From Bacillota bacterium (lineage in GTDB: Bacteria > Bacillota > Clostridia > Peptostreptococcales > Anaerovoracaceae): a stretch of DNA of 26,932 nt. The stretch spans positions 1 to 26,932 of the forward strand of contig JAFZRK010000053.1 in the NCBI GenBank assembly GCA_017619905.1, written 5' to 3'. The position numbers and the translations under genes are program-made. Below the pieces are notes generated by a model that was given only the letters and a program-made list of their open reading frames with translations, searched no databases and was not told the DNA's origin. Below, in pieces: positions 539 through 24,600 of this stretch (position 1 is the first letter of the stretch; every line of letters starts with the position of its first letter).

Positions 539-574
539 CCGCGCAACTGAAGATCAGTCGCGCGGTGTTTCTTT
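539..574 (+). terminator. Intrinsic terminator-like hairpin downstream of the first gene
   Basis: CCGCGCAACTGA-aga-TCAGTCGCGCGG (11/12 pairs) followed by TGTTTCTTT. Contains palindrome copy A. Confidence 0.6.
543..561. repeat. GCAACT-N7-AGTTGC palindrome, copy A
   Basis: GCAACT gaagatc AGTCGC (1 mismatch), intergenic. Confidence 0.75.
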
Positions 575-584
575 GCGCAAACGC

Positions 585-612
585 TTGAAAAAAACGGAGT
601 TTTACATATAAT
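585..612 (+). promoter_or_regulatory. SigA/sigma70-type promoter for the SDR-lipoprotein pair
   Basis: TTGAAA (585-590), 16 nt spacer, TATAAT (607-612). Confidence 0.6.
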
Positions 613-710
613 ATAAGAAAAACATCAGGCGATGCGGAGTTTTACAGGCAAAACATCAGACCATACAGAAACATCAGTCATTCTTCACCCTACATTTACA
701 GGAAGGCATT

Positions 711-1538
711 ATGAATAACGTATACGGAAAGCACGTGCTGGTAACGGGCGCGTCCAGAGGAATAGGCGAAGCGGTGGCCAAGGCGTTCGCGGCCGAGGGC
801 TGCAGCGTTGTTGCGGTCTCCAGGAACTGCGAGGAAAAGACCGTGGAGGTGCCGGGAGGCGGCTCCATAACCTACAGGCGCATGAACGTCTCCGACGAGG
901 CGTCCGTAGCCGCGGTCGTGGACTCCATGGAGCGCGTGGACATAGCGTTCCTGGCCGCAGGCATGGGAATTGCCGGAGCGGCGGAAGAGATGCCCATGGA
1001 TCTGGTGCGCGCGCAGATGGAGACCAACTACTTCGGAACGCTCACCGTGGGAGGCAAAGTCCTCCCAAGGATGAGGGAGCAGGGCAAAGGCCTGCTGATC
1101 GTTGTCGGATCCATCGCGGGCAAGGTGCCCATCCCAATGCAGGGCCACTATTCGTCCAGCAAATACGCGCTGGAGGCCTACGTGGAGACCGTTTCCATGG
1201 AGATGAGGCCGTTCGGCGTCCGCGCAGTAATAGTGGAGCCCGGCGACACCAAGACCGGTTTCACCGCGGCCAGAAAGACCTTCACCAAGGAAGGTTCGCC
1301 GTACTACAAGGCGGTGCTTGACAGCGTGGAGCGCATGGCCAAGGACGAGCAGGGCGGCAAGAGCCCTGATACCGTGGCAGCCGTGGCGCTCAAACTGGCC
1401 GGAAAGACCAACCCGCCGCCGCGCGTAGCGTTCGGCTTCGAATACAAGGCGCTGATGTTCATACTGCGCTTCCTGCCCGACCGCCTGAAGCGCTGGATAC
1501 TCACGAAGATGTACCTGCCGGTGCAGCCCGGGGAATAA
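711..1538 (+). CDS. Short-chain dehydrogenase/reductase (SDR) family oxidoreductase
   Basis: TGASRGIG nucleotide-binding motif, YSSSK catalytic motif, VEPG motif; 275 aa; GGAAGG upstream. Confidence 0.95.
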   Translation: MNNVYGKHVLVTGASRGIGEAVAKAFAAEGCSVVAVSRNCEEKTVEVPGGGSITYRRMNVSDEASVAAVVDSMERVDIAFLAAGMGIAGAAEEMPMDLVRAQMETNYFGTLTVGGKVLPRMREQGKGLLIVVGSIAGKVPIPMQGHYSSSKYALEAYVETVSMEMRPFGVRAVIVEPGDTKTGFTAARKTFTKEGSPYYKAVLDSVERMAKDEQGGKSPDTVAAVALKLAGKTNPPPRVAFGFEYKALMFILRFLPDRLKRWILTKMYLPVQPGE

Positions 1539-1544
1539 AATAGC

Positions 1545-2546
1545 ATGAAACACAAGAACTGCATAAGGGCGGCGCTCGTTCTGCTGCTGGCGCTGGCGAT
1601 GATCCTGTCGCTTTCGGCCTGCGGCAAGAAGAACGGCAACACCGCTCACAAGCATAATTACATAGAGAAGGTCACCAAACCGGCCACCTGCCAGGAGGAA
1701 GGCGTAGCCACCTACACCTGCTACGGCTGCGGCGACAGCTACACCAAGCCGATTCCGGTCTCGGACGGTCACAAGTACAAGAAGACAGTCGTCAAGGAAG
1801 CCACCTGCGCGGAAGACGGTCAGGCGGACTACGTCTGCGAGCTCTGCGGCTACTCCTACACGGAGACCATCCCCGCCACGGGCAACCACATGTACGTGCT
1901 CAAGGAGACGGTCCCGGCCACCTGTCTGGAGGAGGGCAAGGAGATCTACCAGTGCGAATACTGCGACAGCACCTTCGAGGACCCGATCCCGACCACGGGC
2001 AAGCACGTCTATGAGGCGGCGGTCACCAAAGAGCCCACTTGCGTAGCGGAAGGCACCCTCACCTATACCTGCACTATCTGCGGCGACACCTACACGGACC
2101 CGATCCCCGCGACCGGCGTGCACAATTACACGAAAGAAGAGATCATAGTTCAGCCCAGGTGTGACAGGACGGGCCAGAAGAAGCTCACCTGCGCCACCTG
2201 CAGCGACTTCATACTGGAAGACATTCCCAACCTGGAGCATTCGTTCACGAAGTGGGAGGTACTTACTCCCGCGACTACGACCGCCCCGGGCGAGGAGGGA
2301 AGCTTCTGCGATAACTGCGGCATCTTTACGAAGCGCGCCATTCCGCAGCTTCCGCCGGAGGAAGAACCGGAGCCAGATGACGGTTCCGGCAGCAGCGAGC
2401 CCGGAGAAGGATCCGGCGGCGAACAAGGCAGCCAGGACTCTGAAGGCGGAGCCGGCGAACAGGGCGGCCAGGGAACCGATGGCGGTTCCGGAGGAGAACA
2501 GGCAAGTCCCGACGGCGCCGGTGAAAACGGCGGAGCAGCTAACTAA
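1545..2546 (+). CDS. Lipoprotein with six 39-aa His/Cys repeats and an acidic Gly/Ser-rich tail
   Basis: Signal peptide ending LSAC (Cys26). His at aa 37, 76, 115, 154, 193, 232, each followed by a C...CxxC pattern. Starts 6 nt after the SDR stop. Confidence 0.85.
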   Translation: MKHKNCIRAALVLLLALAMILSLSACGKKNGNTAHKHNYIEKVTKPATCQEEGVATYTCYGCGDSYTKPIPVSDGHKYKKTVVKEATCAEDGQADYVCELCGYSYTETIPATGNHMYVLKETVPATCLEEGKEIYQCEYCDSTFEDPIPTTGKHVYEAAVTKEPTCVAEGTLTYTCTICGDTYTDPIPATGVHNYTKEEIIVQPRCDRTGQKKLTCATCSDFILEDIPNLEHSFTKWEVLTPATTTAPGEEGSFCDNCGIFTKRAIPQLPPEEEPEPDDGSGSSEPGEGSGGEQGSQDSEGGAGEQGGQGTDGGSGGEQASPDGAGENGGAAN

Positions 2547-2632
2547 GGCGCATACCCGCCGGCAGCGCAAGACGCGGTCAACAGCGCAAGACAACAAGCA
2601 GAAGCGCACGACCGCAGCATCCGAAAAATTAC

Positions 2633-2679
2633 AAAAGAAACCCTGCAACTAAATCTAAGTTGCAGGGCGTTGTTTTCTT
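2633..2679. terminator. Bidirectional intrinsic terminator between convergent genes
   Basis: CCCTGCAACT-aaatcta-AGTTGCAGGG perfect 10-bp stem, A-rich on the left and T-rich on the right. Confidence 0.8.
2645..2663. repeat. GCAACT-N7-AGTTGC palindrome, copy B
   Basis: GCAACT aaatcta AGTTGC (perfect arms), core of the terminator stem. Confidence 0.8.
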
Positions 2680-2744
2680 ATAACCATTGAAATTTCAACG
2701 TTCTTATTTTTCTCTCCGGGCAGTTTTTACATCGCCGGTTGGAA

Positions 2745-4367
2745 TTACAGCTCCGCGAAACGCTTCTTTCCGGGGCCCATCAGCCAGGCGTTGAGCCCTA
2801 TCGATGCCACCAGGAACAGCGCTATCAGTATCCTCATGTAAGTCTCGGGTGACATCACATTGCGGAGCACGAACGCGTACAGCGCGCCCAGCGCCAGGAT
2901 CACCACCCAGCTTCCGAACAGCGCGATGATTACCGCCATTCCCTGCTTTACCGCCATGGTCTCGTTTGTCCACTTAAGGTTGGGGAAGCACAGTCCCAGC
3001 ATCAGGCCCAGGTTGGCGCAGAAGTAGGTGAACAGTACCGTCAGGACGGCGAGGTAGAGTATGCTCATGGCGTCCAGCTTCAGAACGAAAGCAGCGGCAG
3101 CCAGGAATATAAGGCAGGGCACCAGCGTCAGCACCAGGTGCAGCTTGCGCTTTGCGCCGAAGATCTGCATTGTATCCACGGGCAGCTACTTGCTCAGCCA
3201 GAGCGTCTTCGCGTCCAGAGCGATGCTCGGCGCGGTAATGTCGTTGCTTGAGGCCAGGAAGCACAGGACGGCCGCCAGGACCAGCATCAGCAGCCCCTTG
3301 AACGGCAGGCCCGCCAGGTCTCCGCCCAGCTGGTATTCAAACATCTCCAGGATCTCGCGGACGTCGGCCGCCTTTATGAGCAGTGCCACAGCCGCCACCA
3401 CTACGAAGATCGTGCCCATGCTGCAGTTCAGCAGGTATGCCGGGCTTCCCAGGTAGTGCTTCATCTCCTTGCGGAACAGCGCGTTCGGGATGCTCTGCTG
3501 ATTCGTCTTCTTCTCCTTGTATTCCACGGTCTTTGTCTTTTCCGTGCGGGTCGCTATCTTAAAGAAGGTGCGCGACAGCACATAGTAGACGATGGCGAAG
3601 AACACCACGCATATTGCCGCAAATATCAGGAACGAGCCCGCATCGCCGGCGCAGCCCTTGCCCATCTTGTAGATCGGGTAGACGTAGCCGCTTATCTTGC
3701 CTTCCACCGTGTCGATGTTGGCCAGAATGGTGCGAAGGATAGCGTTCACACGGAAATAGAACACGTAGTAGACGCCCAGGAACAGCAGAGTGGCAATTAC
3801 GGTTAGGGCATTCTTCTTGGGGAAGAGGCCGACCACCAGAGCCACCAGCCAGCCCAGTATGCAGGACAGGGCCGTGCCCAGCAGCGCTATGAAGAATATG
3901 GACAGTATGCTGAATATGCCGGAAGCCGCGGTAGCGCCGTAGCCGCCGGTCCAGTAGATTATCAGGGCCGGGATTATCGGCAGAGCCGCGAACAGCCAGG
4001 CCATGATGTATATGGACGCCATCTTGCTGAGCAGCAGTTTCCCCGGAGGGATGGGCAGCGCCAGAAGAAGGTCGTTGTCCTTGGCCTTGTAGAGCATGCT
4101 GTAGGTCATGAACACGCTGCCGATGACGCTTATTACCAGCGAAGACAGGCCGGACATGGCCATGTAGAGCCAGAGACGGTCGGGCAGCAGCACAGAGAAC
4201 GCCGTGGAGAAGCCCAGGAACGCGGTGCCGATCGATATGTAGCACACGACGAACAGTATCGACATGCCGATTATTCCGCCCTTGGAGCGCCTGACGCCTT
4301 TCCTGCGGTCGTTGGTTATTCCCGCCGTAAGCGCCATGAACTCCTTTTTAAGAAGCGCTTTAAGCAT
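2745..4367 (-). pseudogene. ABC-2-type exporter permease (~540 codons) interrupted by an in-frame TAG at 3188-3186
   Basis: ATG at 4367 with GAGGAGG SD. ORFs 3186..4415 and 2745..3179 are in the same frame and read ...LWLSK*LPVDT... as one continuous multi-TM protein with two homologous halves. Could be a true nonsense allele or a sequence error. Confidence 0.7.
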
Positions 4368-7338: not shown

Positions 7339-8307
7339 CTATTTTACGACCGTGCGGTACGTTCCTGTTTCCGACAGGGTGAAATACGTGGGTCCGGCGC
7401 CGCAGAGCGTTGCGTCTGCCGGGATCGCGGAGGTTGGGGCCTGAGTGTTTGCAAGGGCAGCGGGGCTTGAGACCCGAGATGCATCTGCGCACGAAACCCT
7501 GCAACTGATATTTGGTTGCGCAGATTCCGCGTCGTTTTCTGCCTTTCTGAACAAACGCTCGGCCGGCGCCTGCAGATGGTTGCCCACAAAGCGGAGCTTT
7601 TCCTCTAAGCTCGAGGCATTCAGGAGACCCTCTATGCTGAAGCGCTCCTTGCAGTCCCCGTCCTTCAGTTCCGCGTAGACCGCGCGCGTCTTGCCGGGTA
7701 TGGAAACGTCCGAGAAGTACAGATCCACCCCGCAGTCGACCGGCTGCACGAACTCCAGCTCCGTCCCGCGTCCGCGCGCAATGGCCGCAGGGTGGCCCAG
7801 CTGGCTCGCGATGCAGAACGGAACGTCGGAACCCAGCTTGGCGCCAAGCGGCAGAAGGGCCTCCGGCAGGTCATCCGCAGTCTTCTGCGGCAGCCAGAGC
7901 TTCCCGAGCCCGACCAGCACCGCAGCCGCGTCCGCCGATCCGCCGCCAAGGCCTGCAGCGGCGGGTATATGCTTTTCAATGGCAACGCGGATCCCGCGAA
8001 CGCCGGGCGCAAGTTCCAGACCGTCCTTGTCCAGGGCGTTCGCAAGCAGCTCCGGACGGAAGGTCTCGGCCATAAGCAGCGCGGCTCTGTAGGCAAGGTC
8101 GTTCTGGCCGTACTCGAAGTCCTGCGGGCCAAGCAACGTGGAGCTATCGCACCTGTCAGCCGCGCCGGAAGCGTCGGACGCCTCCACCGTCACCTCGTCG
8201 CAGAGCGAGACCGCCTGCATCAGCATCTCCACCTCGTGGTAGCCGTCGGACCGCTCACCCAGCACGTTCAGTATAAGGTTTATCTTTGCGTAAGCGTGGA
8301 TCTTCAT
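7339..8307 (-). CDS. ispE: 4-diphosphocytidyl-2-C-methyl-D-erythritol kinase with loop insertions and a divergent C-terminus
   Basis: AKINLIL...DGYHEV, GHMP loop IPAAAGLGGGSADAAA, LGSDVPF. The real start is ATG 8307 rather than GTG 8325. Confidence 0.9.
   Translation of the reverse strand: MKIHAYAKINLILNVLGERSDGYHEVEMLMQAVSLCDEVTVEASDASGAADRCDSSTLLGPQDFEYGQNDLAYRAALLMAETFRPELLANALDKDGLELAPGVRGIRVAIEKHIPAAAGLGGGSADAAAVLVGLGKLWLPQKTADDLPEALLPLGAKLGSDVPFCIASQLGHPAAIARGRGTELEFVQPVDCGVDLYFSDVSIPGKTRAVYAELKDGDCKERFSIEGLLNASSLEEKLRFVGNHLQAPAERLFRKAENDAESAQPNISCRVSCADASRVSSPAALANTQAPTSAIPADATLCGAGPTYFTLSETGTYRTVVK
7501..7519. repeat. GCAACT-N7-AGTTGC palindrome, copy C (inside ispE)
   Basis: GCAACT gatattt GGTTGC (1 mismatch). 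Left flank AAACCCT is identical to copy B. Confidence 0.75.
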
Positions 8308-8313
8308 ACGGGT

Positions 8314-8322
8314 ATTATACCA
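8314..8322 (-). promoter_or_regulatory. Extended -10 promoter of ispE (probably leaderless)
   Basis: TGGTATAAT-acccgt-ATG; no SD. Confidence 0.65.
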
Positions 8323-8367
8323 CACGGGGCGGGGCGCAGAGGAATCTTTCCCCGCGGGCGCGGTTTA

Positions 8368-8769: not shown

Positions 8770-10155
8770 ATGGGAAACATCACTATTACTGAAAACGACA
8801 CAAAAAGAGATATAGCGCTTGCGGAAAAGATCGCGGAAAAAGTGCGGGCGGCGGGCGGAAGAGTGTTCTTCGTCGGCGGCTGCGTGCGCGACAAGCTGCT
8901 CTGCGGCGGCGAACTGCGCGGGGACATCGACATAGAGGTCCACGGCGTGGAGCCGTCGGTGCTCTGGGACGTGCTGAACGAGGTCGGCGAGCCCCTGCAG
9001 TACGGCAGCAGCTTCGGGATCTACGGGCTTTCCGGCAGCGCGCTGGACATAGCGATACCCCGCAAGGAACACGCCACCGGGCGCGGGCACCGCGATTTTG
9101 AGGTGTTCACGGATCCGTTCATCGGGCCGGAGGCGGCGGCCAGGCGCAGGGACTTTACCGTCAACGCGCTTATGGAGGACGTGCTGACCGGCGAGATCGT
9201 GGACCTCTACGGCGGCCGGGCGGATTTGGAAAAGAGGGTGCTGCGCTGCGTGGACCCGGAGAGCTTTGTGGAGGATCCGCTGCGAGTGCTGCGCTGCGCC
9301 AGATTTGCGGCTGTTCTCGGGTTTACCGTGGACCCGGCGACCGTCGAGCTCTGCTCCGGCATGGACCTTACGACCTTGTCCAAGGAACGCGTGGAGGGCG
9401 AGCTTAAGAAAGCGCTTATGAACAGCGAAAAACCGTCCATATTCTTCGAAGCGCTGAGGCAGATGCGTCAGCTATCGCCGTGGTTCGCGGAGCTGGAGCA
9501 GACCATAGGCCTTGAGCAGGACCCGGAGTACCACCCGGAGGGCGACGTATGGACCCACACGATGGAGGTCCTGGACCGCGCGGCGGGCTACCGCGCCAAG
9601 GCGGAACAGCCGTACCCGTTCATGATGCTGGCGCTTACGCACGACCTGGGCAAGATCGCGTCCACGGAGTTCGTCAACGGGCGCATCCACGCCTACGGCC
9701 ACGAGGCGGCGGGGCTTCCCATAATAGAGGGCTTCTTGAGGCGCCTAACGGAGGAGACCGCGCTCATCAGCTACGTGCTGAACATGGCGGAGCTGCACAT
9801 GAAGCCCAACATGATGGCTTTCAGCAAGTCCCCGGTCAAGTCCACCAACAAGATGTTCGACCAGGCGGCGTCCGCGCAGGACCTCATCTACATGGCCATG
9901 GCGGACCACCCGGTGAAGTCCGGCGATACGCCGTTCTCCGGCGACGCGGGCTTCCTGTTCGAGCGGCTGGAAAAATACAGGGAAACGATGGCGCAGCCCT
10001 ATGTCATGGGCCGCGACCTTATTGAGGCCGGTCTTAAGCCGGGCGACCAATTCGGCGAGTTGCTGGATTACGCCCACAAACTGCGCCTTGCCGGCATCGA
10101 CAAACAGACCGCGCTGAAGCAGGTCCTGGCCATGGCGCGGAAAAAAACAGAATAA
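8770..10155 (+). CDS. cca: CCA tRNA nucleotidyltransferase (class II) with HD domain
   Basis: VGGCVRD, DID, RRDFTVNAL, EDPLRVLR, HPEGDVWTHT, HDLGK. Confidence 0.88.
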   Translation: MGNITITENDTKRDIALAEKIAEKVRAAGGRVFFVGGCVRDKLLCGGELRGDIDIEVHGVEPSVLWDVLNEVGEPLQYGSSFGIYGLSGSALDIAIPRKEHATGRGHRDFEVFTDPFIGPEAAARRRDFTVNALMEDVLTGEIVDLYGGRADLEKRVLRCVDPESFVEDPLRVLRCARFAAVLGFTVDPATVELCSGMDLTTLSKERVEGELKKALMNSEKPSIFFEALRQMRQLSPWFAELEQTIGLEQDPEYHPEGDVWTHTMEVLDRAAGYRAKAEQPYPFMMLALTHDLGKIASTEFVNGRIHAYGHEAAGLPIIEGFLRRLTEETALISYVLNMAELHMKPNMMAFSKSPVKSTNKMFDQAASAQDLIYMAMADHPVKSGDTPFSGDAGFLFERLEKYRETMAQPYVMGRDLIEAGLKPGDQFGELLDYAHKLRLAGIDKQTALKQVLAMARKKTE

Positions 10156-10180: not shown

Positions 10181-10378
10181 AAAACAGGGTGAAGCTGCTG
10201 GGACATTTCCCCCTGTTTTCGTTTTTTTGACCGATCAGGGGGACGATTCGAGCTGGAGTTTCCCCCTGTTTTAATGTTTTTTTAAATTACAGGGGGAAAG
10301 GAGGATATATTCTTCCCCCTGTTTTCGGTAAGATTACTAAAACAGGGGGAAACCCTCCCGGTTTTCTTCCCCCTGTTT
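10181..10378. repeat. Array of eight alternately oriented TTCCCCCTGTTTT / AAAACAGGGGGAA motifs, ~53-bp period
   Basis: Forward copies start at 10207, 10260, 10313, 10367. Reverse copies (CAGGG core) are at 10185, 10236, 10290, 10343. Linkers are variable and AT-rich. Confidence 0.9.
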
Positions 10379-10512: not shown

Positions 10513-10531
10513 GCAACTAAATATCAGTTAC
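10513..10531. repeat. GCAACT-N7-AGTTGC palindrome, copy D
   Basis: GCAACT aaatatc AGTTAC (1 mismatch), ~40 nt past the GDPD stop. Spacer is identical to copy C reversed. Confidence 0.75.
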
Positions 10532-10567: not shown

Positions 10568-11344
10568 CTACAGTTCGTTCGGGTCAAACCTCTCGAAGAT
10601 GTTGATGTAGCCGAGGCGCTCGGCCTCCTTGAAGTCCTCCGGGGTGTGGATGGTCCATGCGACGCCCTGGATGCCTTTGCGCACGGCGCGCCTGAACGCC
10701 GCGTTGTCGCGGTAATCGAAATTGTAGGCCACGAAATCCGGCTTGGACAGGAAGTTGAGCCTAAGATCGGTCAGCAGACGGCGCGTGTTCTTTGGGCAGG
10801 TGCCCGGATCCTTCACGAAATCCGACGCCAGCTGGCCGCGGACTATCTCCGGACGCAGCTCGCGCACCGCCTTTATGGCGCGCGGGTCGAAACTCTCTAT
10901 GCAGAACAGCCCTTTGTAGCTGTCCAGGCGCTCGCAGACCTTCTCCGCCAGCTCCTGATAGTTGCCGTCCACCACTTTCAGCTCGATTATGAGCGGGTAG
11001 CCGCTGTCCTCGAACAGCGTCAGCACCTCGTTGAAGAGCGGTACTTTTTCGTTGGTGCCCTCCAGGCGCAGCTCGCGCACTTCCTCCAGCGTACGGCCTT
11101 CGATGGTGCCCGGCTCGCCGGTGGTGCGGTCCGTGGTGTCGTCGTGGAACACGACGAGCTTGCCGTCCTTGGTCAGGTGCACGTCCAGCTCCGCGCCGAA
11201 ATGGTTGCGGATGGCGCGGATGAAGGCCCCGATCGAGTTCTCCGGCACCTGCGGCTTGTCGTGGAACCCGCGGTGCGCGTAGCGGAACTTCCTCAGCTCT
11301 TCCAGTTTCGGGTGGCCTGTGCGGCCTGTAAAGAATTCACGCAT
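10568..11344 (-). CDS. Glycerophosphodiester phosphodiesterase family protein
   Basis: YAHRG, PENS, ELDVHLTKDG..VVFHD, IIELK. Confidence 0.93.
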   Translation of the reverse strand: MREFFTGRTGHPKLEELRKFRYAHRGFHDKPQVPENSIGAFIRAIRNHFGAELDVHLTKDGKLVVFHDDTTDRTTGEPGTIEGRTLEEVRELRLEGTNEKVPLFNEVLTLFEDSGYPLIIELKVVDGNYQELAEKVCERLDSYKGLFCIESFDPRAIKAVRELRPEIVRGQLASDFVKDPGTCPKNTRRLLTDLRLNFLSKPDFVAYNFDYRDNAAFRRAVRKGIQGVAWTIHTPEDFKEAERLGYINIFERFDPNEL

Positions 11345-12762: not shown

Positions 12763-14097
12763 TTAGTCGTCCATGTCCTCGTAGGCGGCCAGGCCCTTCT
12801 TGGCTTCGACCTTGGCGTCGCCGTGCCTTACGAAGGTCATGGTAACGAAGGCCAGCGCGATGAATACGGCCGAGTACGGGAAGAGCACCTTGTAGTCGAT
12901 CTGGCGCATCAGCGTTCCGGCCAGGATCGGGGTCACCACCTGAGCCGCCATGGAAGCGGTGTAGTAGTAGCCGGTGAACTTACCGATATCGGAGCCCTTG
13001 CACATTTCAACGACCATCGGCAGGGAGTTTACGTTGATGGCTGCCCAAGCAAAGCCTATTAAAACGAACACAACGTACATTATAATGGTTATCTTTGTCA
13101 TCGAGGTCGTCAGGACGTAGCACAGCGCGAAGCACACTGCAAGCAGTATGCAGCCCATGCGTATCGTCTTTCTGCGGCCCAGCTTGGAAGCGATGATGCC
13201 TATCGGAATGTAGGAGACGATGGCGCCGCCGGTGGCTACCATAAGGATGCGGGACGATTCGCCCAGGCCCATGCCCATGACCTGGCTGGCGTAGGTGGTG
13301 AACCAGGTTGTGACTCCGTTGTAGCCGATGAACCACAGCGCTATGGACGCAAGCAGGAACCCCAAGCTCTTCTTTACCGCGGGCGGCAGGGTCTCGTGGC
13401 CGGAGCCGTCGTCCTCCGCAAGGTTCCACTCGGGGTGCTGGGCCTCCAGGGCCTTGTTCTCCTCGACCAGCTTGGGCTCTTTGACGGTAAGGAACAGGAT
13501 GCCCACGCCTACGAACATTATCGCGGATACTATCATGAACAGCGGCTGGTAGTTTACGTGATCCAGGCCGGCTGTCTTGGATTTCGGGTACATTACCGCG
13601 GCTATGCCCAGGTAGATTATTCCGCCCACCGCGCCCATCAGGTTGATTATGGCGTTGGCCTTGGAACGCAGCGGCTTGGGGGTTACGTCCGGCATCAGCG
13701 CTACGGCCGGCGAACGGTAGACGCCCATGGCTATCAGCAGCAGGGCCAGCGTTACGACGAAGGAGATGATCTTGGCGTTGGACGGGGCGGCGAAGTAGCC
13801 GTTGTCGAAGAGCGGCAGGATGTTCATCAAGATGACTGCGCAGCCCGTGCCGAAGAGTATGAACGGCATGCGCTTGCCGATCTTAGTGCCCGCCTTGTCG
13901 GACAAGCTTCCGAAGAACGGCAGCAGGAACAGCGCCAGAACGTTGTCCGCGCCCATTATGACGCCCGAGACGGTCTCGTTCATGTGGAAGGTATTGGTGA
14001 GGATCATGGGCACGACGTTGTCGTACATCTGCCAGAACGCGCAGATGGTGAGGAACGCCAGACCCACGAGTATGGTCCGCTTGTTGTTGAGCTTCAT
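12763..14097 (-). CDS. MFS transporter (SLC45/maltose-permease-like)
   Basis: About 12 TMs, GSLSDK..TKIGKRMPF motif A, KLGRRK in the second half, ALMPD.TP. Confidence 0.9.
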   Translation of the reverse strand: MKLNNKRTILVGLAFLTICAFWQMYDNVVPMILTNTFHMNETVSGVIMGADNVLALFLLPFFGSLSDKAGTKIGKRMPFILFGTGCAVILMNILPLFDNGYFAAPSNAKIISFVVTLALLLIAMGVYRSPAVALMPDVTPKPLRSKANAIINLMGAVGGIIYLGIAAVMYPKSKTAGLDHVNYQPLFMIVSAIMFVGVGILFLTVKEPKLVEENKALEAQHPEWNLAEDDGSGHETLPPAVKKSLGFLLASIALWFIGYNGVTTWFTTYASQVMGMGLGESSRILMVATGGAIVSYIPIGIIASKLGRRKTIRMGCILLAVCFALCYVLTTSMTKITIIMYVVFVLIGFAWAAINVNSLPMVVEMCKGSDIGKFTGYYYTASMAAQVVTPILAGTLMRQIDYKVLFPYSAVFIALAFVTMTFVRHGDAKVEAKKGLAAYEDMDD

Positions 14098-14167: not shown

Positions 14168-14237
14168 TACAGCAGGCCCTCTTTGAGCGCCGCCAGGACA
14201 TTGTTTACAGCAGGCCCTCTTTGAGCGCCGCCAGGAC
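14168..14237. repeat. 32-bp direct duplication of the HAD gene 3' end
   Basis: TACAGCAGGCCCTCTTTGAGCGCCGCCAGGAC at 14168-14199 and 14206-14237. Confidence 0.9.
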
Positions 14238-15137
14238 GTCGGCGATGTCGCGGAATACGTAGGTGGGGTGCACGCCGTACTTTTCGCAGTCCTCCACCGT
14301 GCCCTCGCCGGACAGCACCAGGATGGTGTCGATGCCGGCGTTGTTTCCGCAGGCGATGTCCGTGTAGAGGCGGTCGCCGATCAGGACGGTCTCCTCCGGC
14401 GCGGCGCCGTATTTTTTGAGCGCGGAATATACCATCTGCGGCTGGGGCTTGCCGATGATGACGGGCTCGCGGCCGGTGCAGACTTTCAGCGAATGGATGA
14501 TCAGACCGATATCCGGCTCGTTGCCGTTTTCGGTGGGGCAGACGAGATCCGGGTGGGTGGCCACGTAGTCTGCGCCCATGTCCAGCAGGCGCACGCAGTT
14601 GACAAGTTTTTCGTATGTGAGCTCCGTGTCGTAGCCAAGCAGAACGACGGGAAATGTTGATTTTTCAAGGGATCTGGGGTCAGCGCTCCGGACGGGTGCA
14701 GGGGCGTGTCCCGTGGACTCGGAACCCGGCGCGCCAGCGCAACTATACTTCAGTTGCTCAAATATGGCGGCCAGCTCCGCCTCCGTGAGCACTTTAAGCC
14801 CCACGGTTCTCAGCTGGCTCTTCAGGTTCTCCGTGCCGCATACATAGTAGGCGGCCGGCGGGTCATTCTCTTTGCCCGGCGCGAACGGCGCGTAGGTCTT
14901 CTTCAGATAGTCTATGGTGGCGTCCGTGGACGTCAGGAAGCTGAACGGCTTCTGCGGAATGCCCAGGCGCTCCATCTTAGCCAGGTAGCCCTCGATCCCG
15001 CGCGAGCTGTTGTTGGTCAGGAACGCGTACTGTCCGCCGCTTGCTTTTACCCACGACAAAAACTCCGCGGTGCCTTCGAAAAGGCGCTCGCCCAGATAGA
15101 TGGTCCCGTCCATGTCGAGTAAGAACAGTTTTTTCAT
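14205..15137 (-). CDS. HAD-IIA (NagD-like) phosphatase with a ~35-aa insertion
   Basis: LLDMDGTIY, LTNNS, IGKP, IGDRLYTD motifs. ATG at 15137 overlaps the GNAT stop (ATGA). Confidence 0.92.
   Translation of the reverse strand: MKKLFLLDMDGTIYLGERLFEGTAEFLSWVKASGGQYAFLTNNSSRGIEGYLAKMERLGIPQKPFSFLTSTDATIDYLKKTYAPFAPGKENDPPAAYYVCGTENLKSQLRTVGLKVLTEAELAAIFEQLKYSCAGAPGSESTGHAPAPVRSADPRSLEKSTFPVVLLGYDTELTYEKLVNCVRLLDMGADYVATHPDLVCPTENGNEPDIGLIIHSLKVCTGREPVIIGKPQPQMVYSALKKYGAAPEETVLIGDRLYTDIACGNNAGIDTILVLSGEGTVEDCEKYGVHPTYVFRDIADVLAALKEGLL
14739..14757. repeat. GCAACT-N7-AGTTGC palindrome, copy E (inside HAD insertion)
   Basis: GCAACT atacttc AGTTGC (perfect arms). Confidence 0.8.
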
Positions 15138-15694
15138 CCCATCGCCTCGTATTCGCTGCGGAGGATGCTCCAGACGCACAGATCCACAATGCCGGTGTTG
15201 TCCGACGCCGCCTGGCGCAGAGTGCCCTCGTACTGAAGCCCGCACTTGTGCATCACCTTGCCGGAGTTGGGGTTTTCCACGTTGTGTCGCGCCTCCAGGC
15301 GGTTGACTCCAACCTCGTCGAACATGAAGCGTATCACCGCCTCGAATGCCTCGCTGGTTATGCCCTGATGCCACCACTTTTTGCCTATGCAGTATCCAAT
15401 GGATACTATATTATGTTTTTCGTTCATTGAAACGACCGAAATCGACCCGATCGGCTCGTTTATCTCCTTCAGGACTATCGCCCACTGGTAGCAGGACGGG
15501 TCCGCGTAGTTTGCCGCCCAGAGCTTCAGCAGCTCGCGCGTGATCTGCGGGTCCTTGTGCGGCTGCCAGGTCAGGTGCTTGGTAACGTCCGGGTCGCTGG
15601 CCCAGTTGTCGAACATGGCCTGCGCGTCGTCCTCGGTGAAGCGCCGCAGGATCAGCCGCCCGGTCTCAAGTTGTACAGTTCCTTTGTGTTCCAT
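15134..15694 (-). CDS. GNAT family N-acetyltransferase (RimJ/RimL-like)
   Basis: LETGRLILRRF, IGYCIGKKWWHQGITSEA, N..S.KVM.KCG. Start may be TTG 15700. Confidence 0.92.
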   Translation of the reverse strand: MEHKGTVQLETGRLILRRFTEDDAQAMFDNWASDPDVTKHLTWQPHKDPQITRELLKLWAANYADPSCYQWAIVLKEINEPIGSISVVSMNEKHNIVSIGYCIGKKWWHQGITSEAFEAVIRFMFDEVGVNRLEARHNVENPNSGKVMHKCGLQYEGTLRQAASDNTGIVDLCVWSILRSEYEAMG

Positions 15695-16836: not shown

Positions 16837-17931
16837 TTATCTGATCCTTCCCGACGCCACGGCGTCCACGAACAGCTTTGTAAGGGTATAGCACTGTTTC
16901 AGATCCGAGGTCTTGGCCACGCTGTTGGGGCAGTGTATGCTGCGCACAGGGGCCGCAAGGCATGCGACCCTAACGCCCGAGCGGCTTCTCTGCACTGCTG
17001 CAGCGTCCGTGCCTCCGGCTATCCTGCCCTTGATCTGCCACGGCAACTTATTTTCAGTTGCAAGGTCCCGCAGGGCTTCAAACAGCTTTCTGTCGTATAT
17101 CGTGCCGGCGTCCATGAAGCCGATCACCGGTCCGCCGCCAATGGTGGTGACCTTCTTGTGGCCGTCCACGCCTGCCAGGTCCGCGGAGGTGGTGCCTTCC
17201 AGGATCAGCGCTATGTCCGGCTTTACGGACCACGCCGCCGCGGTCGCTCCGCGCACGCCCACCTCTTCCTGGACCGTAAACACGAAGGTAACGTCCATGG
17301 GCAGGTCTTTTTCAAGCAGTTTCAGCATAATGGCGCAGCCGCAGCGGTCGTCTATGGCCTTGGCCTTAACGAAACCGTCGCCTTTGCCGAAGCGCACGAA
17401 ATCGCTGTAAAACGCCGCGCAGTCGCCGATGTTCACCAGCTTTTCGGCCTCTTCCTTGTCTTTGGCGCCGATGTCTATGTACATGGAGGTCCACTTCGGG
17501 ATCTCCTCGCGCTCCTCGGGGGTGCTCATGTGGACCGCCTTCAGCCCGGTGACACCGGGGATGCGTTTTTCGCCCACCCATACGCGGCGGTTGAACACGA
17601 CGCGCGGGTCTATGCCGCCCACGGGCGCGAACTTAAGGAAGCCCTTATCCGTGATTCCGTTGATTATGAATCCGACCTCGTCCATGTGGGCCGCGATCAT
17701 GAGTTTTGGCAGCGGGGCGTCGTTTTCCGCGTTGCAGCTGCAGTTCGTGTTGTTGTCCGCGCAGTTTTCCGCGTTATTCGACGCGTGTTTTACCACTATA
17801 AGGTTGCCCATGCGGTCCGTACGCACGTCGTCCGTGCAGCGGAGCGCCTGCGCCTTTATGTATTCGCGCACTTCCTCCTCGGAACCGGAGATGCCGTTCA
17901 GAAGGCAGAGCTTTTTAAGAGTTCTCAGCAT
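16837..17931 (-). CDS. M42 family aminopeptidase (paralog 2)
   Basis: AAHMDE, DDRCG, QEEVG, LEGT, SIHCP. Start ATG at 17931. Confidence 0.9.
   Translation of the reverse strand: MLRTLKKLCLLNGISGSEEEVREYIKAQALRCTDDVRTDRMGNLIVVKHASNNAENCADNNTNCSCNAENDAPLPKLMIAAHMDEVGFIINGITDKGFLKFAPVGGIDPRVVFNRRVWVGEKRIPGVTGLKAVHMSTPEEREEIPKWTSMYIDIGAKDKEEAEKLVNIGDCAAFYSDFVRFGKGDGFVKAKAIDDRCGCAIMLKLLEKDLPMDVTFVFTVQEEVGVRGATAAAWSVKPDIALILEGTTSADLAGVDGHKKVTTIGGGPVIGFMDAGTIYDRKLFEALRDLATENKLPWQIKGRIAGGTDAAAVQRSRSGVRVACLAAPVRSIHCPNSVAKTSDLKQCYTLTKLFVDAVASGRIR
17043..17061. repeat. GCAACT-N7-AGTTGC palindrome, copy F (inside M42 paralog 2)
   Basis: GCAACT tattttc AGTTGC (perfect arms), encodes ATENKL. Confidence 0.75.
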
Positions 17932-18989
17932 TCCAGGGCCTCCTTTCCGGGATCCAGCGCGTACGCGGCCAGAAGCTGCGCGCAGTATTCCACGTCCGCA
18001 AAGTCCAGGCATTCCGCCGGCGAATGCATGTATCGCAGCGGCAGCTCCACTATGCCGGAAGCCACGCCGCCGCGGACTATGTGCATGGCCCAGGCGTCGG
18101 TGCCGGTCCTTCCGGGCGCGGCTATGCGCTGTCTGGGGATGCCATTGCGGTCCGCCAGCTCCGCCAGACGGTTCCCCACGTATTTAGTGATGTTCGGGCC
18201 GACCTTAAGCACCGGGCCTCCGCCGAGCTCCGTAACCACATGAGCCAGCTTTTCGCCGCCGGCGTCCGGGGAACTTGCCTGAGTTACGTCCACGGCTATG
18301 CAGACGTCGGCCTCCGAGTTGAACGCTGCCGCTGCGGCTCCGCCCTCCGAACGCTCCTCGCCTGTGCTCCCGACGAAATACACGTCCCAGGGCAGCTCCA
18401 TGCCGTGCTCCAGCGCGTCCTTCAAAAGCTCCGCGGTCCGTATAAGTATCGCAAAACAGGCCCTGTCGTCCAGAGTCTTGCTTACGTAGCGGCCGTTCAG
18501 AAGGTCGAAGCCCTCCATGCGGTAGGTTATGGGCGTGCCTATCGGCACCTCACGGACTGCCTGCTCCTGCGTGAGTCCCACGTCAACGCGAATGTCCGAA
18601 AGCTTAAGGGCCTTTGACATGTCCTCCGCCTTTAGGACGTGAGGCGGCTGCACGGAAACGACGCCCAGACGGGGCGGGTCGGTCATCACCGTAAGGTCCC
18701 TGTCCGGCAGAACGCGCGGATCCAGCCCGCCTATCTGCCCGACGCACAGGAAGCCGTCCTCGTGGCCGGTAACGACCAGGCCGACTTCGTCCAGATGCGC
18801 CGCAAGCAGCAGCTTTTTAGCGTTCTTTAATCCGCTGCGCCTTACCGCCACAAGGTTTGCCAGTGTGTCCACGTGCACCTCGTCCGCGAACGGAGCGATA
18901 AGCTCCTCCGCTGTCCGCGACACGGGGCGCTCAAAACCCGTGGGTCCTGCGGCCGCGCACAGTTTTTTAATGTATTCTTTGCTTTTCAT
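17925..18989 (-). CDS. M42 family aminopeptidase (paralog 1)
   Basis: AAHLDE, DDRAC, GEER, AVDVT, YMHSP. Confidence 0.9.
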   Translation of the reverse strand: MKSKEYIKKLCAAAGPTGFERPVSRTAEELIAPFADEVHVDTLANLVAVRRSGLKNAKKLLLAAHLDEVGLVVTGHEDGFLCVGQIGGLDPRVLPDRDLTVMTDPPRLGVVSVQPPHVLKAEDMSKALKLSDIRVDVGLTQEQAVREVPIGTPITYRMEGFDLLNGRYVSKTLDDRACFAILIRTAELLKDALEHGMELPWDVYFVGSTGEERSEGGAAAAAFNSEADVCIAVDVTQASSPDAGGEKLAHVVTELGGGPVLKVGPNITKYVGNRLAELADRNGIPRQRIAAPGRTGTDAWAMHIVRGGVASGIVELPLRYMHSPAECLDFADVEYCAQLLAAYALDPGKEALEC

Positions 18990-21031: not shown

Positions 21032-21060
21032 TACAGGTATAGAATAGTACGGATCACAGA

Positions 21061-21267: not shown

Positions 21268-21316
21268 AAGACCGCGTTCCCCGGGTCAAAGGCACCGTCA
21301 GAGGATACGCGGTCTT
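21268..21316 (-). terminator. Long hairpin downstream of the lipoprotein gene, likely terminator of the MBOAT operon
   Basis: AAGACCGCGT ... ACGCGGTCTT perfect 10-bp inverted repeat with 29-nt interior. Minus strand continues TCAGTTT. Confidence 0.5.
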
Positions 21317-21344
21317 ATTTTGCTTTATTTAGTATCGGGGGTCG

Positions 21345-21860
21345 TTATTTCTCCACCAGCGCTATGTACTGGATGGACGTTACCACGCCGCCGTCGAAGA
21401 TGATAAGCAGCTTGCAGTTGTCGGTCTTAAAGGTGGCGCTCGTTGCGTCCTTCTCGAAGTCGCCGTAGGCCTTCTTTACGTCCTCGGCCTTGGAACCGAT
21501 CGCGATGCCCTCCGGGGTCTCCACGGTGTCGTCGCGCAGGACCACGCCGCTGATCAGGTCCTTGCCGTTCTGGCTGTAGGTCATAAGATCAAATCCGTTG
21601 TAGGAGTAGATCTTGTCCATGCCGTCGAACGCGCAGCTGGGGGCCTCGTAACTGCTCTTGTAAGCACCCAGGGCCTTAAGCACTGCCTCGGCGTCGGCCT
21701 TCATCTCGATGACGGTGCTGCCGCTTTTGAACACGTAGTCCTTGCTGTTGGCGCCGCTGTTGGGGTTGATGCTGGTATCGTTGCTTCCTTTTTCGCAGGC
21801 GCAGAGCGCGATCGCGAGCACCAGTATAAGGGCAACTGCCGCTAAAACTCTTTTTCTCAT
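21345..21860 (-). CDS. Hypothetical lipoprotein
   Basis: Signal peptide ending ALCAC, AGGAGG SD; motifs SCAFDGMDK.Y.Y and TPEGIAIGS. Confidence 0.8.
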   Translation of the reverse strand: MRKRVLAAVALILVLAIALCACEKGSNDTSINPNSGANSKDYVFKSGSTVIEMKADAEAVLKALGAYKSSYEAPSCAFDGMDKIYSYNGFDLMTYSQNGKDLISGVVLRDDTVETPEGIAIGSKAEDVKKAYGDFEKDATSATFKTDNCKLLIIFDGGVVTSIQYIALVEK

Positions 21861-21956
21861 CCTTATTCCTCCTTTGACCGGCCGTCCGTCGGCCGTATGT
21901 TTTTATCGGTCCGCGCGCCGGTCTATCGGCTGCCGCAGGACTTCGCATTAACATAA

Positions 21957-23012
21957 TTACTTGTAGCGCGTGACTGCGCCTTCTTCGCGAAGCTGCTTGT
22001 ATTGAGCTTCCTTCATGTATTCGTAGAAGGCCTCTCGCTCGGCCCACTCGGCGGCCAGCGCCGCGTCGGACCGTCTGTCCTCCACGCCGCACTTCTCCGA
22101 CAGGTACTTGCCGAACCACGCGGACATCTTCTCCGCGCCGGAAAGGTTAAGGTGCAGGCCTGCGTCGTAGGTATCCGTATTGTAATCCATTTCGAGCTCG
22201 TCCGCAAGTTCTAAGAAGTTAATATATTCCAAGCCGTATTTTCCGGCGTAGTCCTCGATCTGCTTTTCCCACTGGTCGTACCAGGCGGGGTAGAGCGACG
22301 GCGCCTTTATAAGTATCAGCCGGATGCCGTTCTTATCGCAGGTCTCACGTATCTTGTCCAGGTACTCCCAGCACTTGGGGCCTATCGTATAATCCGGAAG
22401 CGGCACGGGATCCGGCACCTGACCGGCGGGCTTGGCGTCCACGCGCATCAGGTAGCCGTTGTGCGACAGCTTCTCGGTCTTGAACAGGTAATTGAAATCC
22501 TCGGAAGTAAGCTCGCTCCAGCGGGAGTGGAAGCGCAGCAGCGGCAGGATGTAGCTCGCCACGGTCTCCTCGTCCGTCATGGAGGCCTTTACGGCGTCCA
22601 GCTTGGTCGTAGACCACTTCATGCCGTCCAGGGTAAGGCGGTTGTAGGCCTCGTTCTGCGGCTCGGCGTATTTCATTGCCAGCACGTTGAAGACCACCAC
22701 CTTGGGCGTCTCGTAGCGCAGCGTGTCCTCCAGCATGTAGTAGGACTGCCAGGTGAGCTGCTGCGGAGTTCCGCGGATGTAGCTGGTTATTCCGTAGTCG
22801 CGCCACAGCTTTACCGGCGAGAAGTTGGTGTAGACCTCGCAGTCTCCGATGAACAGCACGTCGTTGTTGCCGGCGTTGGCGTAGTACTCGGAGGAGAGTA
22901 TGCCTTCCTCGTTGGTGGTGGCGTACTTGGGCACCAGCAGTTTCTGCAGCAGGAACAGCGTGGCGGCAAGGAGGACGACGCATATTACGATCTTTACGAT
23001 TCTTTTCTTCAT
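21957..23012 (-). CDS. SGNH/GDSL-like (DltD/AlgJ-like) membrane-anchored protein
   Basis: N-terminal TM, DVLFIGDC block-I-like motif, C-terminal DAGLHLN..GA; directly follows the MBOAT gene. Confidence 0.75.
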   Translation of the reverse strand: MKKRIVKIVICVVLLAATLFLLQKLLVPKYATTNEEGILSSEYYANAGNNDVLFIGDCEVYTNFSPVKLWRDYGITSYIRGTPQQLTWQSYYMLEDTLRYETPKVVVFNVLAMKYAEPQNEAYNRLTLDGMKWSTTKLDAVKASMTDEETVASYILPLLRFHSRWSELTSEDFNYLFKTEKLSHNGYLMRVDAKPAGQVPDPVPLPDYTIGPKCWEYLDKIRETCDKNGIRLILIKAPSLYPAWYDQWEKQIEDYAGKYGLEYINFLELADELEMDYNTDTYDAGLHLNLSGAEKMSAWFGKYLSEKCGVEDRRSDAALAAEWAEREAFYEYMKEAQYKQLREEGAVTRYK

Positions 23013-23025
23013 GTCTCCTCCTTTC

Positions 23026-24600
23026 CTAGAACTGGTTGTATATGAACTGCGTGGCGTCGTAGCCGATTCCGTAGGCCCCGAACACCAGAATTACGATTAT
23101 AAGGATCCAGACTATCAGATACCTCGGAACCAGCGGCTTTTCGGCCAGCTGCTCTGCCACAGGCTTCTTGCCCTGCAGTATTCCGACGATCAGGAAAATG
23201 ACCAGCGCTATTGCAACTATAATATAGTCGCGCACTTCCAGCCCGAATTTAAGCATGCCGCCGGAGAACATCTCGCTCCAGCCCTTGCTGCTGAAAATGG
23301 TGGGCACCATGCGGAAGGTAAGCGGCACGTTGCGGTATACGTCAAGCACTCTCAGGAACGCCATCAGCCAGAAGGTGCGGAACATCTGGAAGATATCCCA
23401 GCCCCTGGTATTGGAGAACGCGCACTTTTCGTGGAACTTTGCGTAGAGCGGCTCCAGCTCCTGCGAGATGATTATTACAAGGCAGTTGAGCAGTCCCCAG
23501 ACCACGAAGTTCCAGGACGCGCCGTGCCATATGCCCGTGGCCAGCCACACAAGTATCGTGGACAGGTAGACCGGCACGCGTTTGCCCAGCTGAGTACCCA
23601 GCTTGGCCCTGGACCACTTGGACACCTTAAGCATCCACTTGCTTACGGACACCGGGTAGAATATGTAGTCCTTGAACCACGTTCCCATGGTTATGTGCCA
23701 GCGTCTCCAGAATTCGGTTATGTTCTTCGAGAAGAACGGCCTTTCGAAGTTCTCCGCAAGATCCACGCCGAACATCTTCGCGACGCCAATGGTTATGTCT
23801 ATGCCTCCGGTAAAGTCCGCGTAGAGCTGTATGGTATAGAAGAATACCAGCGCCAGAACGTAGCCGCCGGCGTATTTGTCCGGGTTCTGGGCTATGCCCG
23901 TCACCACCGGGACCAGTCTGTCGGCCACTACCATCTTCTTGAAGAAGCCCCAGACGGCCCTCCAGGCGCCCTGGGTTATCTTCTGCGCGTCGAACGCGTG
24001 CTCCGAATAGAGCGTCTGCGAAAGCTGGTCGAAGCGGCTTATGGGGCCCTGAACCAGCTGCGGGAAGAACGTAACGAACAGCGCGAACCTGGCGGGGTTG
24101 AGCTCCGCCTGATACTTGCCTCTGCTGACGTCGATTATGTAGCCCATGCTCTGGAAGGTGTAGAACGAGATTCCCATGGGCAGGGCGAAGCGCAGGAACG
24201 CAATGTCGGTCCCGAACAGGGAATTGATGGTCCCTATGGCGAAATCCGTGTATTTGCAGACCGCGAGGATGCCCAGGTTAAGGATGAGGCAGCACACCAT
24301 TATGCTGCGGCCCTTCTTCTTGGCGGCTTCCTTGCAGCTCTTCTTTTCTTCTTTGGTAATGTCCGGGGTGTCCTTAAGGAACGCGTCGCGCGCGGCGTAG
24401 GCATCGTGGATCAGCTTGCCCGCAAACCACGTGGACAGCGCCGTCACCGCTATGTAGATAAGGTATTTGGGGCTGGCGAAGGCATAGAAAACTAAGCTCC
24501 CCGCCAGAAGCAGCGCCCACTGGAAGCGGCGCGGCAGCGCGTAGTAAAGGATGAACAGTATAAGCAGGAATAATAAGAATCCGAGCGATACGAAAGACAT
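23026..24600 (-). CDS. MBOAT family O-acyltransferase (AlgI/DltB-like)
   Basis: LPMGISFYTFQ, FFPQLVQGPI, ENFERPFFS....FWRRWHIT, GIWHG catalytic His. Confidence 0.95.
   Translation of the reverse strand: MSFVSLGFLLFLLILFILYYALPRRFQWALLLAGSLVFYAFASPKYLIYIAVTALSTWFAGKLIHDAYAARDAFLKDTPDITKEEKKSCKEAAKKKGRSIMVCCLILNLGILAVCKYTDFAIGTINSLFGTDIAFLRFALPMGISFYTFQSMGYIIDVSRGKYQAELNPARFALFVTFFPQLVQGPISRFDQLSQTLYSEHAFDAQKITQGAWRAVWGFFKKMVVADRLVPVVTGIAQNPDKYAGGYVLALVFFYTIQLYADFTGGIDITIGVAKMFGVDLAENFERPFFSKNITEFWRRWHITMGTWFKDYIFYPVSVSKWMLKVSKWSRAKLGTQLGKRVPVYLSTILVWLATGIWHGASWNFVVWGLLNCLVIIISQELEPLYAKFHEKCAFSNTRGWDIFQMFRTFWLMAFLRVLDVYRNVPLTFRMVPTIFSSKGWSEMFSGGMLKFGLEVRDYIIVAIALVIFLIVGILQGKKPVAEQLAEKPLVPRYLIVWILIIVILVFGAYGIGYDATQFIYNQF
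23213..23231. repeat. GCAACT-N7-AGTTGC palindrome, copy G (inside MBOAT)
   Basis: GCAACT ataatat AGTCGC (same mismatch and same GC right flank as copy A). Confidence 0.65.

Follow-up and report, generated by a model that had tools for sequence, protein, structure and literature searches.

A palindrome clustered around the replication origin in a clade of rumen Clostridia, and an orphan HicB-family protein as its candidate ligand

The window analyzed in this study is a stretch of 26,932 nt on contig C100 of G000, an assembly (1.456 Mb in 195 contigs, 70% complete, 55.9% GC) from a genus of uncultured rumen Clostridia. It contains seven copies of a 19-bp palindrome, GCAACT-N7-AGTTGC, which proved to be concentrated, genome-wide, around the replication origin, oriC. 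One further copy, outside the window, overlaps the putative promoter of a gene for a ribbon-helix-helix (RHH) protein of the HicB family, 112 amino acids (aa) in length. Judged from sequence, this toxin-less protein is most likely what docks at the palindrome. We are further inclined to believe, with moderate confidence, that the palindrome would be the operator of this protein and that the copies multiplied near the origin would form an organizing nucleoprotein domain rather than a regulon.

Copies were scored as GCAACT-N7-AGTTGC with at most one mismatch allowed, those with none being called perfect. By this measure the window holds seven copies, against 0.08 expected from dinucleotide shuffles (100 runs, with never more than one copy in a shuffle). 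The coordinates at which the first-pass annotation had placed them were all borne out, as was its division into three perfect and four one-mismatch copies (Table 1). The whole G000 assembly contains 18 copies with a spacer of 7, of which 6 are perfect and 12 have one mismatch, whereas no other spacer between 0 and 15 yields a perfect copy, and one-mismatch copies number 0-2 at each of them; the excess at a spacer of seven, on which the proposal of a genuine site depended, thus holds for the genome as a whole. An unsupervised census of 6-mer palindromes (spacers 0-12) in the origin region of a relative placed GCAACT with a spacer of 7 first, with 16 copies. The nested palindromes CAACTG (spacer 5) and AACTGA (spacer 3) scored too in this census, which indicates that the preferred form is GCAACTR...YAGTTGC. 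The palindrome census of G000 also returned four CIRCE elements (TTAGCACTC-N9-GAGTGCTAA), which we take to be the operator of HrcA and an ordinary heat-shock regulon signal.

The palindrome had been described as dispersed in the first-pass annotation, and this has to be corrected: when copy density is set against origin and terminus, as that annotation had itself proposed, the copies cluster at dnaA and the switch in GC skew. In G000 the 18 copies fall on eight contigs (seven on C100, three each on C94 and C97, and one each on C50, C77, C101, C108 and C182). Contig C94 carries dnaA, dnaN, mnmE, two canonical parS sites and parB, and its three copies are intragenic, in dnaN, mnmE and a gene for a trypsin-like protease. 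Seventeen of the 18 copies are on contigs syntenic with the origin region, amounting to 171 kb, or 11.8% of the assembly, and including dnaA, dnaN, mnmE and parB; a binomial estimate for such clustering is about 3e-15, for a region that was chosen after seeing the data. The arrangement can be followed in G011, a congener whose assembly is 98% complete in 20 contigs and onto which the G000 contigs map at 80-85% nucleotide identity, the window corresponding to C22:96.4-122.1 kb. Sixteen of the 18 copies of G011 fall at two contig ends, the final 67 kb of C22 and the initial 47 kb of C18, which puts them within about ±65 kb of the skew switch at dnaA; the remaining two are on C17 and in a low-GC island. 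The landmarks of C18 are dnaA at 8.2 kb, parS at 18.6 kb and parB at 19.8 kb. GC skew along C18 turns from negative to positive at about 10 kb, at dnaA, and is mostly negative in the tail of C22, so that the two contig ends most simply flank oriC.

Other members of the genus show the same tendency. In G018, 17 of 27 copies, among them 11 of the 12 perfect ones, were placed on the same origin region by tblastx, and the twelfth perfect copy is 2.6 kb from parB. Both G016 and G018 have copies on the dnaA contig, a few kb from dnaA. In G007, a motif-poor genome, two contig ends (C25:75300-77541 and C11:1-2400; loci L096 and L097) have a coding sequence of tandem repeats in common; the assembly is probably broken there by a large gene for a repeat protein, and the window orthologue would lie about 55 kb from dnaA. 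Complete genomes at the family level were uninformative for placing the window, as their MBOAT homologues, 88-709 kb from dnaA, are probably not orthologues. A complete 2.6-Mb genome of the same family (G319:C1) gave 23 weak Bac_DnaA-domain matches, mostly with identical scores, in open reading frames (ORFs) of about 250 aa; these look like an expanded IS21-type IstB helper ATPase, that is, like an insertion-sequence burst.

The possibility that the palindrome is a non-canonical parS could be ruled out. Canonical parS (TGTTTCACGTGAAACA) occurs in addition to the palindrome, in close-set groups of 2-4 just upstream of parAB, in motif-rich and motif-poor genomes alike (G000:C94:13487-13502 and 13586-13601, locus L099; G011:C18:18625-18729), and its 16-bp consensus, TGTTNCACGTGNAACA, is unrelated. 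Such parS clusters, about 1 kb upstream of parA/parB, were found in nearly every genome searched in the genus and the order. Two candidate binders were discarded as well. The second ParA/ParB pair of G011 (C18:94.4-96.2 kb) lies in the low-GC island mentioned above, and a MerR-type protein acting in the manner of RacA is non-discriminating, since one or two copies are found in motif-rich and motif-poor genomes alike. The island itself (C18:90000-114265, loci L010 and L011; 44-49% GC against about 56%), in which the ParA/ParB-like pair occupies positions 94419-96150, is probably an integrated conjugative or plasmid-derived element, and its sole palindrome match (106743) looks like a chance occurrence.

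Multiplication of the motif is restricted in taxonomic range. Among 20 species genomes of the genus, nine are motif-rich, with 15-29 copies (G000, G002, G005, G011, G012, G013, G016, G018 and G019), eight have 0-2 copies and three have 4-7; copy number is at background in other genera of the family and order. The motif-poor genomes share only 65-74% identity with the rich set over short alignable pieces and, being far more distant, leave the motif-rich genomes as what is probably one clade. When 112 kb surrounding dnaA in motif-poor G007 were searched de novo, no comparable palindrome emerged as enriched, the top matches being tandem repeats of a coding gene.

The copy that points to a binder is the one on G000 contig C182 (2684-2702). 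It is intergenic, identical in four species and located 50 bp upstream of the gene for the 112-aa protein. A promoter scan proposed TGCACA-16-TATAAT, and inspection by eye TTGCAC-17-TGTATAAT; either way, the −35 element overlaps the right arm of the palindrome. The gene is monocistronic, with a divergent hpf gene on one side and, on the other, a terminator and then an aminotransferase gene in convergent orientation. All eight orthologues examined have one motif copy between −68 and −96 relative to the start codon, where it touches or overlaps the −35 element. The protein matches the HicB family in Pfam (PF05534, E = 9.5e-19). In an AlphaFold (AF2) monomer model, with a predicted local distance difference test score (pLDDT) of 86.6, a HicB N-domain of four strands and one helix is followed by two RHH helices; the RHH strand was not called in this model. 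The top Foldseek matches were HicB structures, namely 6g26 (HicB of B. pseudomallei, probability 1.0), 2dsy, 4p78 and 6hpb, and a PDB sequence search with the family profile gave only marginal RHH matches.

The half-site recurs in front of relatives of this gene. Three paralogues from the genus (40-46% identity) carry G[CT]AACT-N6-AGTTGC upstream. Among 13 distant homologues from other genera and families (38-46% identity), 11 have G[CT]AACT-N6/7-AGTT[GA]C within 400 bp upstream, compared with none of the 13 in the 400 bp downstream, a mean of 0.28 (maximum 3 in 2000) in shuffles and 0-1 with other spacers. Wherever a hicA-like ORF lies ahead of the HicB-like homologue, the palindrome precedes that ORF, and KGSFNVR, the DNA-reading strand of the RHH fold, is conserved across the binder and its homologues. 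Such a family-wide footprint suggests that the GCAACT half-site belongs to the HicB family and that the window motif is its operator. Within G000, a HicB-like paralogue of 46% identity (C72:694-1023, locus L115) has GTAACT-N6-AGTTGC upstream; genome-wide, spacer-6 copies are at background in this assembly, and only the N7 operator has multiplied. In another genus (G328:C3:115065-115385 and G154:C6:783-1103; loci L151 and L152), the HicB-like module forms the N-terminal part of a protein of about 330 aa, with a perfect GCAACT-N6-AGTTGC 97 bp upstream.

Orthologues with at least 73% identity to the 112-aa protein were found only in motif-rich genomes (G000, G002, G005, G011, G013, G016, G018 and G019); motif-poor genomes have no homologue, or only paralogues at 30-49% identity. 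In a collection of 5.8 billion proteins no homologue falls between the orthologue group, at 71% identity or more, and the rest, at 57% or less, and members of the group, where named, are labeled "type II toxin-antitoxin system HicB family antitoxin". No HicA toxin domain (PF07927) was found in G000, G011 (98% complete) or G018, and none beside the binder gene. Among G000, G002, G005 and G011 the protein is 97-99% identical, whereas third codon positions are only 65-82% identical, which indicates vertical descent under strong purifying selection and not recent transfer. The gene is thus predicted to encode an orphan HicB-type protein, toxin-less, clade-specific and strongly constrained.

The sites themselves appear to be what selection maintains. 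Eleven of the 18 sites of G000 are intragenic, occurring in all three phases and encoding unrelated peptides; four of the seven intergenic ones lie between convergent genes, and one (C97:4922) is 49 bp upstream of the lysS start. When 17 of the G000 copies were compared with the orthologous regions of G011, 11 were retained (at most one mismatch), 2 were degenerate (three mismatches) and 4 were absent. At least three copies of G011 have no counterpart in G000, and another five fall within or next to stretches that the G000 assembly lacks; with 18 copies in each genome, site number is held. In ten aligned pairs of G000 and G011 sites, counted by hand on BLAST alignments, differences affected 11 of 120 arm positions as against 19 of 70 spacer positions. 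Read in this way, the alignments indicate that selection acts on the DNA sites, not on the peptides or transcripts. The variety of reading phases, the occurrence in clade-specific insertions, the location between convergent genes, the conservation of arms as opposed to the drift of spacers, and turnover at constant number together argue for a structural role, of a centromere or an origin domain, rather than a regulon. The site in the second M42 peptidase gene is instructive. There the clade has GCA ACT GAA AAT AAG TTG CCG (ATENKLP) where outgroups have GCCGTAGAGCACGGCATCCCC, that is, GCC GTA GAG CAC GGC ATC CCC (AVEHGIP), and the comparison indicates that the site arose by amino-acid replacements relative to the outgroups. 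No site was found at the outgroup M42 loci within the 5.6-21 kb examined.

RHH-type HicB proteins are tetramers, built as dimers of dimers through their N-domains and exposing two RHH modules; they bind inverted-repeat operators at their own promoters, and for HicB3 of Y. pestis bridging of its two operators by one tetramer has been proposed (PMC11594946). One could therefore picture the 112-aa protein as an autorepressor that uses a single copy of the site at its promoter. A further 15-28 copies would have accumulated in one subclade, mostly inside housekeeping genes or between convergent genes, and selection would keep them within about ±65 kb of oriC. A HicB-type tetramer, with its two RHH modules, might clamp both arms of one site or bridge two sites; a centre-to-centre arm spacing of 13 bp and an AT-rich spacer would fit one RHH module per arm. 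Sites and tetramers together could build a compacted or marked origin domain, centromere-like or macrodomain-like, beside canonical ParB-parS. Physical binding, oligomeric state and organizing function are what we infer for the HicB-like protein. The first-pass annotation had suspected the site of an uncharacterized dimeric nucleoid or division protein; the suggestion of a chromosome-organizing protein fits the evidence and gains the clustering at the origin and a named candidate, the orphan HicB RHH protein, whose binding is predicted. A bolder version, in which a toxin-antitoxin regulator has been domesticated as a chromosome organizer that bridges some 16-28 operators into an origin macrodomain or second centromere beside ParB-parS, is tentative, and we regard it with some doubt.

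Several points weigh against an origin domain built by the HicB-like protein. With a single clade, the co-occurrence of protein and motif probably amounts to about one evolutionary event, and any clade-specific gene would correlate equally well. Among the 401 genomes of the order sampled for homologues, none outside the genus exceeded 46% identity, and no independent co-occurrence of protein and motif was found outside the clade. No orthologue was detected in motif-rich G012 (71% complete). The contig of the binder gene carries the promoter site only, so that the gene may lie outside the site cluster; a location of the corresponding G011 contig, C17, between C22 and C18 found no support in G007 synteny, and a G018 contig (C112) joins C17-like and C18-like genes. 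No ParA-like ATPase or anchor-protein partner was identified. About one third of the sites are unshared between two species at 80-85% nucleotide identity, which makes individual sites dispensable. The genomes compared are throughout fragmented metagenome-assembled genomes (MAGs) of uncultured organisms, G000 with its 70% completeness among them, and the ends of C22 and C18 in G011 are presumed to be adjacent, not joined in the assembly. Finally, an organizing role is one among several possible uses of clustered sites.

An ordinary regulon would be such a use: the HicB-like protein would act as a transcription factor tuning the genes at its sites, and clustering at the origin would be incidental. 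The HicB family is indeed known for promoter-binding repressors (PMC11594946), the window site at 543 is followed, about 20 bp downstream, by a strong promoter-like element, and the lysS site is similarly placed ahead of a gene. We nonetheless consider a regulon unlikely, as coding sequence accounts for most of the sites with no consistent position, the intergenic sites between convergent gene ends have no promoter there, and the genes concerned (dnaN, mnmE, ispE, HAD, M42, MBOAT) are functionally unrelated; nor is there reason to expect, from a regulon, that 16-17 of 18 sites should crowd into about 10% of the chromosome, with oriC at the centre. One could also envision origin-proximal decoys which, doubling after initiation, would transiently soak up the autorepressor and produce, once per cycle, a pulse in the expression of the autorepressor itself or of a few targets, a datA-like and non-architectural device. 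The combination of an autorepressed gene with many copies beside oriC fits replication-coupled titration of this kind, and so does a site number maintained through the turnover of individual sites; the data do not distinguish it from an architectural role. Yet no downstream target is evident, and the retention of arms at particular orthologous places across several species would go unexplained, which leaves titration, in our estimate, quite unlikely. Equally improbable is that the palindrome is bound by a different protein, which would simply count the HicB-like gene among its targets. Regulators of the MerR type and of other types are present in each genome, our survey of other clade-specific genes was non-exhaustive, and the case for binding by the HicB-like protein rests on sequence. 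Against this, 11 of 13 distant HicB homologues have the half-site in their upstream region at N6 or N7 spacing, ahead of the hicA-like ORF where there is one; as members of the family are documented operator binders, this looks like a signature of autoregulation by the HicB family itself.

A miniature element was another idea of the first-pass annotation. Taken as a palindrome of the RPE or MITE (miniature inverted-repeat transposable element) type, mobile or carried by insertions, that spread neutrally and can sit in frame within genes, it seems to us very unlikely. Two copies do lie in lineage-specific in-frame insertions, and the sites at 2645 and 7501 share 8 flanking bases. However, flanks anchored on the core are 25% identical (20.1 of 80 positions; best pair 34 of 80), which is the level of chance, so that the copies have only the 19-bp core in common; between the ispE and HAD insertions the local alignment is weak and does not extend past the core. 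Several sites arose, moreover, by point substitutions in conserved coding sequence, the arms are conserved as the spacers drift, and neutral spread would not be expected to stay within the origin region. The resemblance to tyrosine-recombinase core sites, also raised at that stage, is not supported by the count of 18 copies with 11 inside housekeeping ORFs; the Pfam matches of the window's main ORFs include no recombinase family, no genome-wide recombinase search having been made. Scarcely credible, finally, is a role as RNA-level hairpins (terminators or attenuators), as a restriction-modification target or as an uptake sequence. Terminator-like hairpins are topped by two of the copies, but most copies are inside ORFs, with stems of only 6 bp and without T-runs; 18 copies per genome is a density far too low for an uptake sequence, and neither enrichment nor regional clustering would be expected of restriction-modification targets.

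A chromosomal domain organized by the HicB-like protein would have parallels, each of them partial. The candidate shares the plan of the HicB antitoxins of Y. pestis (HicB3), B. pseudomallei and S. pneumoniae, a HicB N-domain followed by a C-terminal RHH, and, like them, would have an inverted-repeat operator overlapping its own promoter. HicB antitoxins of hicAB modules come with HicA, which here is neither adjacent nor detected in a 98%-complete genome. Unlike them, too, the operator is present at 15-29 copies, nearly all outside promoters and concentrated at oriC, and the protein is under unusually strong purifying selection. RacA of Bacillus subtilis, which anchors the origin at the pole at sporulation, has as its ram sites about 25 GC-rich 14-bp inverted repeats spread over some 600 kb centred on oriC. 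The likeness is that of a few dozen palindrome copies, many of them coding, in about 10% of the chromosome around oriC, coexisting with parS; the sequences differ (here with AT-rich spacers and other arms), and RacA has a MerR-like winged helix fold. No Spo0A_C domain was found in five genomes of the genus, a RacA homologue itself not having been searched for; lacking Spo0A, the host is probably non-sporulating, and the palindrome would not belong to a sporulation device of the RacA or RefZ type.

MatP of enterobacteria is an RHH protein with 23 copies of a 13-bp palindrome, matS, confined to the Ter macrodomain. The RHH class of the candidate binder, the short palindrome and the roughly 20 copies defining one region are all reminiscent of it, and a site-bridging oligomer has been proposed for MatP also; the location (terminus there, origin here), the sequence and the N-terminal domain are different. 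Sites of Noc and SlmA are spread over the chromosome except the terminus and those of MatP occur at the terminus only, distributions opposite to the one seen here, with 16-17 of 18 copies in about 10% of the genome around dnaA. ParB, a helix-turn-helix CTPase, and RefZ, a sporulation-linked member of the TetR family, likewise have palindromic sites (parS and RBM) near oriC, some in genes, at positions conserved across species; the 6-N7-6 layout and the candidate binder described here are unrelated to either. For SegB, an RHH protein of Sulfolobus, chromatin immunoprecipitation gave about 17 clustered peaks, most of them within genes, along with binding close to the SegB gene itself (PMC12858884). 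An RHH binder (here a candidate), clustered and mostly intragenic sites (here known by sequence) and one site by the binder's own gene are common to the two systems. SegB is archaeal, is encoded in an operon with the ParA-like SegA and has its sites within about 20 kb of segAB, not around an origin; an ATPase partner was not found in the present case.

Chromosomes receive their addresses from site systems specific to a region, among them parS, ram, matS, RBM and segS. Only a handful of them are known to us, all from cultivated model organisms, and raw sequence from the uncultured rumen has here yielded a new origin-specific site family together with a named candidate binder. If the bolder version is correct, the palindrome and the HicB-like protein would be an origin-side counterpart of MatP-matS, independently evolved in non-sporulating rumen Clostridia, and selection would have seeded the sites partly through codon rewriting and in-frame insertions in essential genes. 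The sites also show selection on DNA prevailing over protein sequence in essential genes such as ispE, dnaN and mnmE. A plausible route is that an autoregulated antitoxin lost its toxin and that its operator then multiplied around oriC. The combination of palindrome enrichment near dnaA with promoter footprints of small DNA-binding proteins could reveal similar systems in other MAGs.

Most of the contexts that the first-pass annotation assigned to the seven window sites stood, including the hairpins, the ispE insertion and the coding copies in the M42 peptidase and MBOAT genes; the copy in the HAD gene, given there as lying in an insertion, is better described as being in a variable linker or insertion. 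The promoter-like element downstream of site A is TTGAAA-16-TATAAT (585-612) and would serve a short-chain dehydrogenase gene (711-1538); no orthologous site was found in G011. Site B has both arms intact in G011, with three of seven spacer bases changed in surroundings that are only 67% identical. Site C sits in an IspE insertion of about 38 aa that is specific to the motif-rich clade and missing from the IspE of G007; at the corresponding place G011 has a perfect site, the arms being kept though the flanks are unalignable. Site D, which has an orthologue in G011, is flanked by a convergent pair, a cca-type nucleotidyltransferase gene (8770-10155, plus strand) and a GDPD gene (10568-11344, minus strand). 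The linker that contains site E also has a perfect site in G011, at another position and in another reading phase (GNCNSV versus EQLKYSC). Site F is conserved in G011, and the identical 19-mer is found in G002 and G013. Site G, which encodes RDYIIVA with A/T-ending codons, is the same 19-mer at the orthologous place of G011 and also occurs in G002 and G005.

Table 1. Copies of the palindrome in the window and the gene of the candidate binding protein
Feature	Position	Strand	Sequence and match	Context
Site A	543..561		GCAACTGAAGATCAGTCGC, 1 mismatch	Intergenic, core of a 12-pair hairpin (539-565)
Site B	2645..2663		GCAACTAAATCTAAGTTGC, perfect	Top of a bidirectional terminator-like hairpin (2640-2668) between convergent genes
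Site C	7501..7519		GCAACTGATATTTGGTTGC, 1 mismatch	Inside ispE (GHMP kinase, 7339-8325, minus strand)
Site D	10513..10531		GCAACTAAATATCAGTTAC, 1 mismatch	Intergenic, 37 bp past the GDPD stop codon
Site E	14739..14757		GCAACTATACTTCAGTTGC, perfect	Inside HAD-family hydrolase gene (14205-15377, minus strand), variable linker or insertion
Site F	17043..17061		GCAACTTATTTTCAGTTGC, perfect	Inside second M42 peptidase gene (16837-18012, minus strand); encodes ATENKLP
Site G	23213..23231		GCAACTATAATATAGTCGC, 1 mismatch	Inside MBOAT acyltransferase gene (23026-24600, minus strand)
Candidate binder gene	G000:C182:2299-2634 (locus L104)	minus		112-aa HicB-family RHH protein, outside the window

A terminator scan of the window showed several short G-rich hairpins at 10300-10359, between the cca-type and GDPD genes. 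In the HAD ORF, homology with relatives begins at residue 81 (MKKLFLLDMDG), which is probably the true start, and in the ORF of the second M42 peptidase it begins at about residue 28 (MLRTLKKL); the arginine-rich N-terminal extensions of both are probably untranslated.

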